Source: a virus
Virus genome (UHGV): UHGV-2031204
Reading direction: 5' to 3' (one strand)
DNA length: 64,000 nt
In this document: positions 6,238 through 62,049 of the stretch, piece after piece
How positions within the stretch are numbered: the stretch's first letter is position 1
Layout of the letters: every line of letters begins with the position of its first letter
The notes under the pieces: generated by a model
The model's database searches: none
Told to the model about the DNA's origin: nothing
Seen by the model: only the letters and a program-made list of their open reading frames with translations
Translations under genes and position numbers: made by a program

Positions 6238-7164
6238 ATGTATTTGTACAAAAGTAAAAAAGTAAAAGGTATTAAAGACTGCCTTAGACAAATGGGGTCT
6301 CAGCATCTTGAAAATGTCATGGAAGAAAACCGAATAAAGGAAAATCCTGTCTCGAAATGGATAAAAAAGAATCGTAAGCATTTAACTAATGCCTTTATAC
6401 CCTACGACGCTGAGTTAGGTCTTAAAGATCCCCGTTCCCTTCACGCTCAAACATTGGCAATTGGATGGCTATACGGTGGTGCTTCCTTAATATCCGATCG
6501 AGCACTTAGAGAACTTGTTTTCGAGACTGAGATGCCCAGTAAATTCCCTGAAGAATGGTTAGACTTTATACCAACTTGGACTGTAGCAATCGATGTAGGT
6601 AAAGAAGATGAGACTTTCTTTCTCGGTTATCGAAAAAATGGGAATAGAAGGTTTATTATAATTGCTACAAATACTGATTACGGGTTAACAGAAGGTGTTA
6701 CCACGATCGCCACCTGCTCGTTAGAGATATGTAGTGTTGGAAACGGGCTTGTTGAAATCGATTATACAACTGGCGTACGGACCGAACAAGAGAAGACGTT
6801 ATGGCTATCATTGGCCAAAACCGCCATATCGTTGATATTTCTCTGTACGCTAATCCCGCCCAATCTCAGAGGGTCTTTCAATGACATTAAGTTCAAAGAA
6901 ATCAAAAAGAATGGTAGCATAAGTCACGAAATCAAACCTCGTGAACGTGACGTTAAAATAGACATCACGCCAGGACAAGTGAAATATCTAAAGGGATTTA
7001 ACACCGACTTGAAAACCATGGAAGGTATCAAACACGCCAAGGCTGCACATATCCGTCGCGCACACTGGCGCAGATATTGGGTCGGTCCAAGAGATGGGGA
7101 AAGGAAGAGAAAACTTTACTGGATTCCGCCTACATTTGTCCGTGGCTACGTACCCCACAATTAA
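6238..7164 (+). CDS. hypothetical protein, paralogue A (C-terminal HIRRAHWRRYW motif)
   Basis: TAGGAG RBS; C-terminus AHIRRAHWRRYWVGP...W.PP; similar to the next gene. Confidence 0.55.
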   Translation: MYLYKSKKVKGIKDCLRQMGSQHLENVMEENRIKENPVSKWIKKNRKHLTNAFIPYDAELGLKDPRSLHAQTLAIGWLYGGASLISDRALRELVFETEMPSKFPEEWLDFIPTWTVAIDVGKEDETFFLGYRKNGNRRFIIIATNTDYGLTEGVTTIATCSLEICSVGNGLVEIDYTTGVRTEQEKTLWLSLAKTAISLIFLCTLIPPNLRGSFNDIKFKEIKKNGSISHEIKPRERDVKIDITPGQVKYLKGFNTDLKTMEGIKHAKAAHIRRAHWRRYWVGPRDGERKRKLYWIPPTFVRGYVPHN

Positions 7165-7189: not shown

Positions 7190-8089
7190 ATGACAACGAA
7201 TAATAGACTTTACGGGAAAGCGCTAAGACGCATGAGCGAACAAATAGAAAAGGCGTACCAAACAATTCACGGATTAGATCAGTGCCGTTTTATTCGGTTC
7301 ATTAACGAGCATAAACGTCAAATACCCGTAACGTTTATGCCAGTTAAAGATCCGACCTATCGTGAGTATGGCGTTACCGAACAGATTCCCAGACTGATTA
7401 AGCAGTCCCTGGGACTAGGATGGCAATACGCTGCTGTTGAAATCATCTCGGATGAAGAACTGATGGCACTCTTAGCAAAAACTGAGAGACTAAAAAATAT
7501 CCCGTACTTCTGGATAGAAACCATCCCTTCATTTACTTTCTCGGTTACCGTAAATCTCGACGAATGCCCAATCACGTTATTTATCGGAAGACGTCTTTAC
7601 GAAGGTGAAGAAGTTCTCTTTGTGATGTCATGCGAAGAACATGACGAGACGGTATACATGGAGTTTGAGATTTACACGATCGATAAAAGTAATGATGATT
7701 TCGTGGAGTTAAAGCCGCTCCTTACTTCGGTTAAGGAGAATCAACGACTACTCGACGCGGTCTACATCGGGCTATATCTTTCGTCACGAATTAAACGAAC
7801 TGAGCGCGAGAAGAAAGAATTTCGCGGAAGGTCCATTCGTTATGTTCCTGATACAGAGATTCGCCCACGTAGTGAAGCGGTCGTTTTAGACGTAAGTCCG
7901 GTACAATGGGAAGATATAGAACAACAACGCAAGGAAGGACACGAGGTTTGTTTGGCGATTTATTGCTCAGCACATATCCGTCGTGCTCATTGGAAGCGTG
8001 TATGGTGTGGTAAAATGTCAGAAATGCGTTGGCGCGAATGGCGATGGATAGCGCCGAGTTACATCTCTGGATTTTATCGTGGAAAATAA
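7190..8089 (+). CDS. hypothetical protein, paralogue B (C-terminal HIRRAHWKRVW motif)
   Basis: TAGGAG RBS before ATG 7190 (track ORF 7094 starts inside the upstream gene); C-terminus AHIRRAHWKRVWCG. Confidence 0.55.
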   Translation: MTTNNRLYGKALRRMSEQIEKAYQTIHGLDQCRFIRFINEHKRQIPVTFMPVKDPTYREYGVTEQIPRLIKQSLGLGWQYAAVEIISDEELMALLAKTERLKNIPYFWIETIPSFTFSVTVNLDECPITLFIGRRLYEGEEVLFVMSCEEHDETVYMEFEIYTIDKSNDDFVELKPLLTSVKENQRLLDAVYIGLYLSSRIKRTEREKKEFRGRSIRYVPDTEIRPRSEAVVLDVSPVQWEDIEQQRKEGHEVCLAIYCSAHIRRAHWKRVWCGKMSEMRWREWRWIAPSYISGFYRGK

Positions 8090-8097
8090 ATAGTTTA

Positions 8098-8121
8098 CCC
8101 CTAGACCGTGTGGTCTAGGGG
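8098..8121. terminator. stem-loop between convergent genes, likely bidirectional terminator
   Basis: CCCCTAGACC/GGTCTAGGGG stem, GTGT loop, T-rich downstream on plus. Confidence 0.6.
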
Positions 8122-8134
8122 TAACTTTACTTTT

Positions 8135-8890
8135 TTATTTTTTGTTTGCCTTAAGCGCTTTTAAGCGTTCGGCAGTAACGTTCAGGCATTCGATTAACTC
8201 GTTGACCTGTTTCATGAACAAACCGAACAGCTCCACCCAATCAGAAGCAAAATCCAACATCATCGTCAGTTCTTTTGCTACATTCGGATGAATGTTTTGT
8301 TCGGACAAGATTTCTGACGTAGTACGAATAGACTCGATTGACTTGTCGATGTTCGTCCGTAGACGTTTTGTGATTTCAACGTTCAGTGCCTTAGCACGAT
8401 TGAACGCAACATCAATTTCAGACGCACTGTGATACGTCTTCTCAATTGGACGCTGGTCAATAACGTTGTTGGTGTACGATTTCGCTAATAAGTTAACCAG
8501 GTCTTTCGGGTTAACATTACGTAACGGTAAATTAACATTTTTGTAACGGAAACCAATCGGTAATGACAGTACCCCCACATCATGTGTAAGGGCCGAAAGT
8601 TGTTTATCGACCGGCAGCAGAATACCCGTATAGATGTTTTGCAGTGAACTCCATACAGATTCTAAGCGGTTCAAGTGATCCATCACGTAGGTATTAAACC
8701 CAGGTGGAACGATAACCAACATTCCCGCAAAGTGTAGGAATTTTTCTTGTTGCATCCACTTGGAAACGTCCGACATCTCGTCATAAGTGGTTAATGCAAT
8801 CTCTTGTTGAGGGCCACTGAACCCTTTCGGTAAGATTGCAGACGCTTTAGCGGCGAAGCTAGATAACGCTGCAAGTGGATTTACATTCAT
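8135..8890 (-). CDS. hypothetical protein (single minus-strand gene inside plus block)
   Basis: 251-aa ORF flanked by terminator and a divergent intergenic region. Confidence 0.5.
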   Translation of the reverse strand: MNVNPLAALSSFAAKASAILPKGFSGPQQEIALTTYDEMSDVSKWMQQEKFLHFAGMLVIVPPGFNTYVMDHLNRLESVWSSLQNIYTGILLPVDKQLSALTHDVGVLSLPIGFRYKNVNLPLRNVNPKDLVNLLAKSYTNNVIDQRPIEKTYHSASEIDVAFNRAKALNVEITKRLRTNIDKSIESIRTTSEILSEQNIHPNVAKELTMMLDFASDWVELFGLFMKQVNELIECLNVTAERLKALKANKK

Positions 8891-40663: not shown

Positions 40664-41467
40664 ATGGATAATTTAACACTGCGTTACAACTGTGTAGCGT
40701 TAGCCGGTGTTAACGCTCCAGCCACACTGGAGAAAGACGCGGATGGTTATTACCGCGTACTATTGGGCGCTTTGAATATCTTTAACTCGGAAGGGATTTT
40801 TTACGCCTATAACGAGTCCAAACACGTATTCGAACGCTCGAACATTTTTATGCGTAAAGTGAAAGCAGGGAATCTGTTCGGGGAAGAAGATCACCCAGCA
40901 CCAGAACCCGGTATGACCGAAGCGCAATGGATTGATCGCAACGAATGGATTGAGACGAAAAACGTCTGTATGCACATTCGCGAAGTTGAAGTGATTCCAA
41001 CCGACCAAACCTGTAACGGCTTGCCGGTCATGGAAATCTGGGGCTGGGTTAAGCCGAACCGTGAACGTGGTCCGTACTTAGCAGAAGCGCTCGAAAACCC
41101 ACACCAGAATGTGTGTTTCTCTCTGCGCGCAATCGTACGTGAAGGCTATGTGGGCGGTGTGAAAACACGTCGCTTAGATCGCCTGGTGACGTTCGACTGG
41201 GTTATCGAAGACGGGTTGCAGATTTGTAACAAATACTCTGCAATTCAACGCGGTAGTAAAGTGGCGCAAGAATCCACTCGTGTACTGCTGGACCGTCGTG
41301 TTTCTCTCCAGGCGCTGGAGGACATTCTGCGAAATCCTAACACTACGTCTGCCATCGCGACAGAATCTCGTCGTGGTGAAGTTCGTGCGTTAGCGCAGGA
41401 GTACCTGGCCATCGCTAATAAGAAAACTAACCTACGTGTTATGGGTTTAGGTAACGGGAAGTGGTAA
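40664..41467 (+). CDS. hypothetical protein
   Basis: 267-aa ORF. Confidence 0.5.
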   Translation: MDNLTLRYNCVALAGVNAPATLEKDADGYYRVLLGALNIFNSEGIFYAYNESKHVFERSNIFMRKVKAGNLFGEEDHPAPEPGMTEAQWIDRNEWIETKNVCMHIREVEVIPTDQTCNGLPVMEIWGWVKPNRERGPYLAEALENPHQNVCFSLRAIVREGYVGGVKTRRLDRLVTFDWVIEDGLQICNKYSAIQRGSKVAQESTRVLLDRRVSLQALEDILRNPNTTSAIATESRRGEVRALAQEYLAIANKKTNLRVMGLGNGKW

Positions 41468-59609: not shown

Positions 59610-59940
59610 CTGAATCTTCACACACTGAAGATTCAGGTTGAGTAGTTCTCTAGCTTTGGTTTTTTGATCTTTTAAAATTTTTAATACTCTTCGAGAGACT
59701 TAGTGTCTCTCGAATCGATCTTAAATTTTTAACTCTTTCAAAAATCTGATCTCAAGATCTCTTCCTTATACGCGTGTGCGCACGCACACGTATAGTATAA
59801 TATATTTATTTATAAATATATTATTCCTTTAGGATCAAAATAATAATACCTTTAGGTATTATTTAATTATATATTTTAATATATATTATATATAAATATA
59901 TATAAAACGCGCGCGATCCTTATTATGAGATCTGATCTCG
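59610..59940. repeat. repeat-rich AT-rich intergenic core (candidate origin/regulatory hub)
   Basis: IR 59610-59636 (11-bp arms); direct repeats GATCTTTTAAAATTTTTAATACTCTT 59666-59691 and GATCTTAAATTTTTAACTCTTT 59717-59737 flanking IR 59690-59714; quasi-palindrome 59767-59794; ~90% AT 59795-59907 with IR 59842-59863; CGCGCGCG 59908-59915. Confidence 0.5.
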
Positions 59941-60120
59941 CTATGACCCCCCTGAGGGGGTAGGGATCGGTGAGCGGTATTTTCCAGAAAAAACCGAAAA
60001 TCGTACCCGGGGTAATTCGCCAGGGTAAAATCCCCACCTGGGGGATCGGGTAGGGGTCTACCCCGAACACCTGACCGAGGGGTGTAAAACCCATTCCCCT
60101 TTTTCGAACGTTAAAACCCT

Positions 60121-60760
60121 ATGGTATGTTCGGAGGATTTGCGTGGGATGATTTACAAATCCAACCACGAAGATTTTTCGGAGTTCAGGAGTTTACTGCT
60201 CACAGCTCAAACACGATTTCTGTCTGCGAAGATTCAGCAGAGCTCGAAGCCCCCTGACCGGATGTTGGTTTGGGGGTTGTTTTTTCGAGTGCATGGAATT
60301 TATTTCGCCGTGTACTGGGAAAAACAAAACGTTCAGCCTAACACTGGAGTTTGTTTTACTATGGGGTTTGAAAATCGATTTGCCAATCGAACTTACCCCG
60401 AGGGATTTTTGGAATCCCCAGAGTTCAGGTGCTCGGTACCGTTTCCCCGACTTACGAGTGTTGGGGAGCCCGCGCTATCAGTGACGCGTGGACCACATGA
60501 GAAAATCCGAGGGAACCGTGGCAGCCTCTGGGAGCGACGTTGGCGAAAGGTCCGTAGAACTTACCTGCGGGCAGCCGACGGTGGGATACGCTCCCAGAGG
60601 TGCGGCCAGAATGCGAATTACGACGTTGCGTCGAATGACCCTGCTCCAGGTAGCGCTGGCAGTGTGATGTCCTCTAGCTTGACGGCTCGCAAAGACGAGA
60701 GGGGTGCGTACTCCCGTTGAGAAACGCCGGTACGCAGCTGAATTATTTTTTTTTACAGCG
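60121..60760 (+). ncRNA. candidate structured noncoding RNA (unclassified)
   Basis: GC-rich, no RBS; perfect 12-bp long-range helix 60525-60536/60589-60600; several local hairpins; terminator-like hairpin 60705-60736 plus T-run 60745-60754; the overlapping 199-codon ORF uses CGA/AGG/GGG codons, whereas sampled neighbouring genes read mostly CGT/CGC for Arg. Confidence 0.3.
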
Positions 60761-60802
60761 TTTCCTGTTGGTGTGACACAAACCACGGCAGGAGATTTTA
60801 AT

Positions 60803-61165
60803 ATGGATTCCAAAAACACCACTAACGTGGAATTGGATGTTCAGTACAGGCTCGATGAGTTGGCAGCTCTGTTAAAAGCCCCGGAGGACTGGGGATGCAC
60901 GGAGCCAGCGTTACTTGATTTGATCAAGAGCGTGCGGATTTACCAACCCGTCGAGATTTACATCACGGTAGTTGTGGAAGTTCACGATGGTTATTGCGTG
61001 GAACACATCCCTAGCCCTATTGCGCATTATCCGAGCTATCGAGAGTGTCTCCTGGTAGCCGTTCGTGAAGGCTTGGCTCGTGCGATTCGTGAACATGTTA
61101 CGCGATGCACGAACCCGATGGCAGCTGTTGATCAGGTGGACAGCAATGAGTTAGGAATTCTGTGA
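60803..61165 (+). CDS. hypothetical protein, coupled to HslV-like gene
   Basis: GGCAGGAG RBS before ATG 60803; stop overlaps downstream start. Confidence 0.5.
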   Translation: MDSKNTTNVELDVQYRLDELAALLKAPEDWGCTEPALLDLIKSVRIYQPVEIYITVVVEVHDGYCVEHIPSPIAHYPSYRECLLVAVREGLARAIREHVTRCTNPMAAVDQVDSNELGIL

Positions 61166-61665
61166 TGACCACGATTGTTTTTGACGGAAAGACGTTAGCT
61201 TGCGACGGTCAAGTCACCGTGGAAGAGCGTAGTGCTGCCACGCAATACCGTAAGATCCACACGCCGCCCGAGGGTACGACGTGGAATCTTTTGGGTGAAG
61301 ACGTAAAAGCGTTTGGTTTGGCAGGCGATGTCGCCGCATTGCAATCTGTGCGTCAAGAACTCACGCTTGAACGTTTCGGTGGTATCGAACGGGGTGGGGT
61401 TCGTTTTGAAACGACGTATCCCGAACAGATTGATTTTATCGTACTTGCTGTTTTGACAGACGGGCGCGTTATCGACGCCTCGAAATGCAAAGACAACAAA
61501 TACGCCAGTTACGTGTTTGTAGAGCCACCGTATGCGATAGGCTCAGGTGCACACTATGCCCTGGGTGCGTTAGGCGCAGGCGTTGACGCCCCCACTGCGG
61601 TGGAAGTGGCGAAACGTTACGACCTGTACAGCGGTGGACAAACGCAATCACTTAAGCTGTTTTGA
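61165..61665 (+). CDS. HslV/proteasome-beta-like N-terminal-nucleophile peptidase
   Basis: [16 protein letters not shown] parallels HslV [30 protein letters not shown] parallels [23 protein letters not shown] parallels IAIGSGGPYAQAA. Confidence 0.6.
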   Translation: [166 protein letters not shown]

Positions 61666-61672
61666 TGTATTA

Positions 61673-61748
61673 GGGGGTGTAGCACAATTGGTAGTGCAGC
61701 GGTCTCCAAAACCGAAGGTTGGGAGTTCGAAACTTCCCGCCCCCGCCA
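61673..61748 (+). tRNA. tRNA-Trp (anticodon CCA)
   Basis: Manual cloverleaf: D-stem GCAC/GTGC with G18 G19, anticodon loop CTCCAAA (U33, CCA, A37), T-arm GGGAG-TTCGAAA-CTTCC, acceptor GGGGTG with 1:72 mismatch; 3' end uncertain by a few nt. Confidence 0.75.
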
Positions 61749-61812: not shown

Positions 61813-62049
61813 ATGAACTTGTATCTAGTAGAAAGAACCGACAGCGTTGGTTGGGATGAATGTTCCGCAATGATTGTTGCAGCCCCTACGGAAGAAGCTG
61901 CATGTGCAATTCTTCCTTGCGAGTCTGGCTGGACTGGTGAGTTGTTATTGGATGGAGATGTGGAAGAGGTTACCCTCAAAGCCACACTCCTCGGTACGAC
62001 ACACTACCCAGAGGGGGAGGTTCTTTACACTGATTACCTATACGGCTAA
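61813..62049 (+). CDS. hypothetical small protein
   Basis: 78-codon ORF starting at ATG 61813 (track ORF begins upstream at 61789). Confidence 0.35.
   Translation: MNLYLVERTDSVGWDECSAMIVAAPTEEAACAILPCESGWTGELLLDGDVEEVTLKATLLGTTHYPEGEVLYTDYLYG

Follow-up and report, generated by a model that had tools for sequence, protein, structure and literature searches.

A PPH-family proteasome homologue encoded without an HslU-like partner in the lineage of an SPN3US-type jumbo phage

The gene at positions 61165-61665 of the UHGV virus genome UHGV-2031204, analyzed here as one stretch of 64,000 nucleotides (the window), encodes a 166-amino-acid protein that belongs to the already described PPH family (annotated as "peptidase HslV family"; Fuchs et al. 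2021) and, within it, to an enlarged jumbo-phage subclade. We consider it probable that this protein is a catalytically competent family member that acts as a stand-alone threonine peptidase, i.e., without a dedicated phage unfoldase. The gene had been singled out in an earlier reading of the DNA made without database searches (hereafter the sequence-only reading), which proposed an HslV-like peptidase in a two-gene operon beside a tRNA-Trp gene. The window represents a phiKZ/SPN3US-type jumbo phage of enterobacteria, and its genes for split multisubunit RNA polymerase beta, tail sheath, terminase and a 2388-amino-acid tail/transglycosylase protein match jumbo-phage PHROGs. The PPH family appears to be equivalent to PHROG_1040.

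The fold of the protein was assessed by profile searches and by structure prediction. The 166-amino-acid protein matched PHROG_1040 with an E value of 2.3e-35, and a profile of 13 relatives matched the solved structures of HslV (2.8e-10), of archaeal and eukaryotic beta subunits (from 1e-7) and of BPH (1.6e-5); judged on sequence, the resemblance to the HslV/proteasome fold is thus far beyond chance. By itself, the window protein matched no solved structure in a single-sequence search and no Pfam family even at E ≤ 10, so that Proteasome PF00227 was left unmatched; the same family was matched weakly by 8 of the 13 relatives (best E 2.8e-5). The AlphaFold model of the protein (pLDDT 91.8, pTM 0.87) shows the proteasome-like beta-sandwich core (Ntn, i.e., N-terminal nucleophile, hydrolase of the T1 type) that defines PPH and PHROG_1040, and Foldseek related this model to HslV, beta subunits and BPH with a probability of 1.00. 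In the fold comparison, the figures for the superfamily were approx. 16 for beta subunits, 15.6 for BPH, 12.6 for Anbu and 9.6 for connectase. The product is accordingly, by its profile matches and its model, a proteasome/HslV-fold Ntn hydrolase, and the fold suspected in the sequence-only reading is borne out by the family profile matches to solved structures, the AlphaFold model and Foldseek. The N-terminal MTTIV and the motifs DGQ (residues 14-16), GLAG (52-55) and AIGSG (124-128), on which that suspicion had been built, were all found in the protein. Compared with two relatives, the gene shows a dN/dS of 0.09-0.10, i.e., strong purifying selection.

Residue conservation was counted over 262 aligned family members, which were collected from two large protein searches. 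The nucleophile Thr1 (T2 of the window protein in Met-numbering) and Asp17 (D14) are each conserved in 256 of the 262 sequences, Lys33 (K30) in 260 and Gly47 (G54) in 261, while the G-S/T-G motif around Ser129 (S127) is present in all 262; Asp166 (D153) and Ser/Thr169 (S156) are retained in 259 and 253 members, respectively. The sequence-only reading had stressed the Thr directly after Met and had named a lack of conservation of this Thr and of the catalytic Lys among homologues as the observation that would speak against it; both residues are nearly invariant (256/262 and 260/262). An exact Met-Thr start was found in 246 of 261 relatives, the remainder being fragments or mis-called starts. 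Methionine aminopeptidase removes Met1 when Thr occupies position 2, and the Met-Thr starts therefore indicate that there is no propeptide and that methionine aminopeptidase alone should expose the nucleophile.

The analysis shows the fold, the conservation of the catalytic residues, purifying selection and the lack of HslU in this lineage; enzymatic activity, and with it Met removal, substrates and timing, is what we infer for this protein, and the proposed sequence of events would be as follows. Host methionine aminopeptidase would remove Met1, as Thr stands next and there is no propeptide, and the hydroxyl of the exposed Thr1 would serve as nucleophile, activated by the equivalents of Lys33 and Asp17 together with the free alpha-amine. 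The equivalent of Gly47 would provide the oxyanion hole, and those of Ser129, Asp166 and Ser169 would hold the active site together. Within the infected cell, the protease would then act on peptides or on those proteins of host or phage that are unfolded or accessible for other reasons; such substrates are the most likely ones because the phage has no dedicated AAA+ unfoldase. This role would resemble that proposed for uncapped 20S proteasomes and for BPH.

The window protein differs from most of its family in size (166 amino acids versus a family median of 142). The additional approx. 25 residues form two insertions, which are common to the homologues of SPN3US, EL and pEa_SNUABM_29. The first is an extra beta-hairpin (residues ~34-48), well modelled, which directly follows the catalytic Lys and carries the conserved Trp40, and the second is a longer loop at the place where helix H2 would be. 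In the model, a single helix (58-67) is followed by coil (68-90; pLDDT 51-84) and then by the next strand, so that H2 is absent, and the alignment to Salmonella HslV likewise shows the H2 segment deleted in the window protein. PPH and RPC were described as the only groups without helix H2 (Fuchs et al. 2021). The enlarged variant was encountered chiefly among jumbo phages (SPN3US-like, Erwinia, EL). The excess over approx. 140 residues is best read as the mark of a jumbo-phage subclade and not as grounds for exclusion from PPH. The protein could also be read differently, i.e., not as a degradative protease but as a sequence-specific processing enzyme, or as a transpeptidase or ligase, with a single defined target protein of phage or host: a monomeric ligase, archaeal connectase (PMC8665760), is known within the superfamily, PPH proteins are without the helix normally used in ring contacts, and the conserved extra hairpin with Trp40 could shape a specific binding site. 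We regard this as very unlikely, as the full proteasome-type hydrolytic set is kept, including Asp166 and Ser169, and no conserved neighbour gene presents itself as a possible substrate.

We also searched for an unfoldase partner. Using RAY gp116, Caitlin gp127 and the SPAsTU HslU-like protein as tblastn queries (E ≤ 1), nothing was found in the window, nor in a complete 221,873-bp relative whose PPH protein is 96% identical and whose PGAP annotation contains no HslU-like gene. The absence of an HslU-like partner, which the sequence-only reading had noted for the surroundings of the gene, therefore holds by tblastn for the whole window and for this complete relative. A published survey had likewise found no co-occurring AAA+ protein or interactor for PPH (Fuchs et al. 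2021). In the SPN3US-type phage Lh1B, the HslU-like gene is reduced to a 75-amino-acid remnant with the Walker A motif, and SPN3US-type records retain a full-length match to the window protein. RAY-like phages carry an HslU-like ATPase and did not occur among the PPH matches listed. PPH is also encoded by small phages, i.e., Xp10 (44 kb) and Jedunavirus (49 kb), and the approx. 8-kb regions examined in these show no annotated HslU-like gene. Because the ATPase is absent, decayed or distant across PPH-bearing phages and present in RAY-like phages, PPH and the HslU-like ATPase are not an obligate pair. The partner picture is thus more nuanced than that given either by the sequence-only reading or by the 2021 survey. 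As a separate observation, the phage HslU-like AAA+ gene (encoding approx. 570-590 amino acids) is widespread in Erwinia and Salmonella jumbo phages.

Several points weigh against a stand-alone peptidase. Many Erwinia and Salmonella jumbo phages carry PPH together with a full-length HslU-like AAA+ gene (approx. 580 amino acids), located approx. 100 kb away, and in these phages the two products may be partners. HslV alone is nearly inactive without HslU, and a lone homologue might likewise need an activator. Without H2, the usual stacked rings may be unable to form. Finally, the literature searched reports no biochemical activity, structure or substrate for any PPH protein.

Alternatively, the protein could supply the proteolytic component of an ATP-dependent machine: it might dock on the host HslU hexamer or on another host AAA+ unfoldase, and thereby either form a hybrid protease whose specificity is set by the phage or titrate HslU off host HslV. 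The window protein is homologous to HslV, bacteria of the kind whose assemblies contain this phage lineage carry hslVU (as seen in a Salmonella record), and related jumbo phages encode an HslU-like AAA+ protein, one of which, RAY gp116, was reported in the phage nucleus (bioRxiv 10.1101/2023.02.24.529968). A reading of RAY gp116 itself as a nuclear HslV paralogue was rejected, the record being that of a 569-amino-acid HslU-like ATPase. We nevertheless regard docking on a host unfoldase as unlikely. In HslV, the missing H2 belongs to the pair of apical helices on the side that faces HslU, and the position of HslV Lys28, which binds the C-terminal carboxylate of HslU, is occupied by Ala, Asn, Asp or Gly in the phage proteins. 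Moreover, the window protein scores only 12.6 bits against the NCBIfam HslV equivalogs TIGR03692 and NF003964 (cut-offs 157.75 and 137). The phage HslU-like gene is absent in the window lineage and decayed in SPN3US-type phages; where both genes are present they are far apart (approx. 105 kb in Erwinia phage Caitlin, and similarly far in the other phages listing both), and the survey cited above found no co-occurring AAA+ protein.

The genomic surroundings bear on function as well. The PPH gene of the window lies among tRNAs and small genes, and in Xp10 the gene falls within the leftward "L" gene block, which includes the host-RNA-polymerase inhibitor 45L. This neighbourhood would fit a host-directed accessory function better than a structural one; a PADLOC search for defence-system membership gave no match. 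The sequence-only reading had also mentioned virion maturation, for which the sole support is that the protease is phage-encoded. A role as head or virion maturation protease is extremely improbable, as the window has its own S80-family prohead serine protease at 40664-41467, among the structural genes (its product is 98.9% identical to a protein that PGAP names prohead serine protease), and PPH is found in the tRNA and small-gene region and, in Xp10, among the "L" genes with 45L.

The gene directly upstream, encoding 120 amino acids, is a real gene, as its homologues keep the frame and an MDS... start and it evolves under purifying selection (dN/dS 0.19-0.47 versus relatives). Its stop codon shares one base with the start codon of the protease gene, which suggests translational coupling, and the sequence-only reading had proposed the small protein as an adaptor or inhibitor. 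A dedicated two-component system, in which the 120-amino-acid protein serves the protease as adaptor, activator or inhibitor, would be consistent with co-translation across this overlap, with the selection on the small gene, and with the small open reading frames (ORFs) that overlap the start of the homologue in other phages too. The small gene did not follow the protease gene across phages, though. Its homologues form 4 clusters only (74-90% identity), all from closely related phage contigs of approx. 220 kb; SPN3US and EL have no ORF of this type upstream of their PPH homologue, and BLASTP found no similarity between the 120-amino-acid protein and the upstream ORF of pEa_SNUABM_29. In a related contig (L004) an unrelated extra gene encoding 104 amino acids (6344-6658) separates the 120-amino-acid homologue from PPH, and in the Escherichia coli replicon (L006, approx. 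7840-8190) the orthologue is 44% identical while PPH is 96% identical. The protein matched no family in Pfam, PHROG, NCBIfam or PADLOC, and its AlphaFold model is poor (pLDDT 54). Unrelated small ORFs overlap the PPH start by 4 nt in pEa_SNUABM_29, L004 and Klebsiella phage BUCT_49532, and gene overlaps are the rule where phage genomes are densely packed. The slot upstream of PPH is thus mosaic, and the 120-amino-acid gene is confined to its lineage and mobile with respect to PPH; its one-base overlap reflects the gene packing usual in phages and is no evidence for a conserved adaptor. On these grounds a two-component system is very doubtful and the proposed adaptor or inhibitor finds no backing in the comparisons; the small gene would rather be a separate, fast-evolving accessory gene that shares the transcript and is not an obligate subunit. 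In the homologue from the E. coli relative, the N-terminus is near-identical and the remainder divergent, which suggests recombination within the gene.

The features of the locus are collected in Table 1. The arrangement described in the sequence-only reading, i.e., two translationally coupled ORFs beside a tRNA-Trp gene, was reproduced with the same coordinates, and the order protease, then tRNA-Trp, also occurs in SPN3US, pEa_SNUABM_29 and L004.

Table 1. Features of the PPH locus in the window, and phage HslU-like genes
Feature	Position	Strand	Remarks
Candidate structured RNA, approx. 0.85 kb	59908-60755	+	directly upstream of the operon of the 120-amino-acid and PPH genes; best-supported 3' domain 60440-60755
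Shine-Dalgarno-like AGGAG	60790-60794	+	8 nt 5' of the ATG of the 120-amino-acid ORF; read from the sequence
120-amino-acid ORF, ATG start	60803-61165	+	from the ORF list; lineage-specific, no recognisable family
TGATG junction	61163-61167	+	TGA (61163-61165) and ATG (61165-61167) have one base in common
166-amino-acid PPH-family proteasome homologue, starts M-T-T-I-V (ATG-ACC)	61165-61665	+	predicted N-terminal threonine peptidase, MEROPS T1-type fold
tRNA-Trp, anticodon CCA	61673-61748	+	ARAGORN; Rfam tRNA 62 bits; 8 nt past the protease stop codon
Phage HslU-like AAA+ gene	L012 1501-3240		
Phage HslU-like AAA+ gene	L013 1501-3261		
Phage HslU-like AAA+ gene	L023 2501-2728		
Phage HslU-like AAA+ gene	L005 1353-3062		

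The 1.7 kb between the end of the preceding gene (59108) and the 120-amino-acid ORF contains no credible ORF and holds a candidate structured RNA. Within it, positions 60464-60762 are 84-100% identical (mostly >90%) to two close relatives, as compared to approx. 78% for the flanking coding DNA, and the indels in this segment are not multiples of three. Blocks of the RNA can be traced in SPN3US, pEa_SNUABM_29 and phiEaH2 as well as in the IMG/VR contig L016; the PPH proteins of the first three are only 34-40% identical to that of the window. A 10-sequence alignment, read on the + strand, gave a multi-helix structure of 71 base pairs, 24 of which show compensatory double changes. Paired cells amounted to 95.7%, versus approx. 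41% when the partners were slid, and the observed covariation score was reached by 0 of 500 shuffles, in an alignment that represents only approx. 5 independent lineages and from which the structure itself was derived. Among the features of the RNA are the hairpin CGACG-UUG-CGUCG and the loop GAACUUACCU, both invariant, as well as a terminal hairpin whose stem covaries and whose loop is of the GNRA type (GAGA, GUGA or GGGA). The z-score from single-sequence folding was only -1.8, and no Rfam 15 family was matched at E ≤ 10. The 3' core occurs, unannotated, in 44 phage records; in those phages that were inspected closely, it closely precedes the first ORF of the PPH operon. The RNA motifs are absent from phage EL. 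Collinear conserved blocks reach back to about 59908, where they are preceded by an AT-rich block. The candidate may be a discrete RNA of approx. 0.85 kb, or it may serve the PPH operon as a long structured leader. A 199-amino-acid ORF with an ATG start inside the region (60121-60720, + strand) was rejected and is almost certainly spurious, its translation being arginine-rich and unlike that of a protein, with frame-breaking indels in relatives. A "hypothetical protein" is annotated over the equivalent stretch in Huxley, Machina and several SPFM phages.

The AT-rich block itself (59754-59937) is 74-100% identical to close relatives (92-100% over 59751-59850), is alignable to SPN3US 56-258, and holds a GC-rich alternating palindrome at 59767-59794. 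A second palindrome, AATACCTTTAGGTATT (approx. 59846-59861), has the counterparts ATATCCCGTAGGGATAT in pEa_SNUABM_29 and AATATCTTTAGATATT in L016, i.e., its arms change in a compensating manner between phages. The block may act as promoter or operator or as an origin, or it may form an RNA or DNA hairpin. One may go further and picture a conserved module of SPN3US-like jumbo phages in which AT-rich palindromes, RNA, PPH and tRNA-Trp follow one another, with PPH as an unfoldase-independent, possibly ring-less threonine protease directed against one host defence or proteostasis factor, and with the RNA as its regulatory leader or as a new class of large phage noncoding RNA; taken as a whole, we hold this picture to be distinctly unlikely.

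On the 3' side of PPH, the tRNA slot holds tRNA-Trp(CCA) in the window, L004, SPN3US and pEa_SNUABM_29, while the same slot in the E. coli "plasmid" relative (L006 8698-8772) holds an unrelated tRNA-Ile(AAT) between flanks of 94% identity. One tRNA gene has here been exchanged for another at a fixed site. Just 3' of the tRNA-Trp gene lies an ORF of approx. 78 amino acids (61813-62049, + strand), which is syntenic in SPN3US (gp264), pEa_SNUABM_29 and L004 and had no match in an NCBIfam search. Together with the tRNA it aligns to SPN3US as DNA (71% over 421 nt), which is unusually conserved for the region. Megablast of the region against cultured phages gave no match, so that no close cultured relative of the lineage is present in the phage collection. 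Complete circular genomes of approx. 87% identity were deposited as "plasmids" (NZ_CP173450.1 and NZ_CP134650.1), the hosts being E. coli 98232 (221,873 bp; an 87.5% identical replicon) and Enterobacter ludwigii (222,441 bp). The cluster of the PPH protein comprises 400 members, which come from assemblies of Salmonella, Shigella and E. coli and lie on contigs of approx. 220-226 kb, a spread that suggests frequent carriage by, or co-isolation with, clinical isolates.

Relatives of the window protein come from phage records and phage-sized contigs, and the family as a whole is short (median 142 amino acids). The family is very common: at E ≤ 1e-10, its profile is matched by approximately 10,000 cluster representatives, a count that may include canonical HslV and proteasome subunits. 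The gene is already annotated as "peptidase HslV family" in SPN3US (gp001), EL, Xp10 (50L), Jedunavirus and other records. The view that such a protease is unexpected in a phage therefore could not be upheld: PHROG_1040 is already annotated in several phages, and the genome paper of a related Salmonella jumbo phage expressly notes that this phage encodes HslV but lacks HslU (PMC7823757). The literature searched on SPN3US contained nothing beyond the pSal-SNUABM-04 genome paper. As the family, its phage distribution, the missing helix and the missing partner are all in print, the window protein adds little as a discovery. Its interest lies elsewhere: among the proteasome-type protease families, PPH alone is genuinely viral, and the jumbo-phage variant, with its confident model, its full set of catalytic residues, strong purifying selection and an HslU-less complete relative, offers a clean test case for a proteasome homologue with neither an unfoldase nor H2.

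Compared with known systems, the window protein is not HslV proper, because it scores so far below the equivalog cut-offs (12.6 bits), is only 25% identical to Salmonella HslV, is without H2, and carries a beta-subunit-like D-x-x-S/T-G-G motif where HslV (ClpQ) has D-I-C-I-Y-T-N. It shares with HslV the N-terminal MTTIV, DGQ, Lys33 and AIGSG, as well as a Thr1 that would be exposed by Met removal alone; of the elements of HslV, it has neither the apical helix H2 nor the RNGH hairpin insertion nor the ARALLENTEL segment, and, whereas HslV has HslU, no hslU is found adjacent to it or anywhere in its lineage. BPH and the beta subunits of uncapped 20S proteasomes have the same set of Thr1, Asp17, Lys33, Ser129, Asp166 and Ser169, and BPH, like the window protein, has no known unfoldase; they differ in keeping all four flanking helices, they form heptameric double rings, and the beta subunits further require alpha rings and autolysis of a propeptide. 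Connectase and Anbu belong to the same superfamily, likewise function with no AAA+ partner, and deviate from the closed, stacked ring arrangement; connectase is without the H1/H2 pair and carries an extra domain, and Anbu, at approx. 230 amino acids, has a helical C-terminal extension. The closest agreement is with PPH as described, i.e., a proteasome-like beta-sandwich core bearing Thr1, Asp17, Lys33 and Gly47, the absence of a propeptide, of H2 and of C-terminal S12/H5 elements, occurrence in tailed phages and prophages of Proteobacteria, and no linked AAA+ gene, from which the window protein differs in its length (166 versus about 140 amino acids), in the hairpin with a Trp after the catalytic Lys, and in the longer loop in place of H2.

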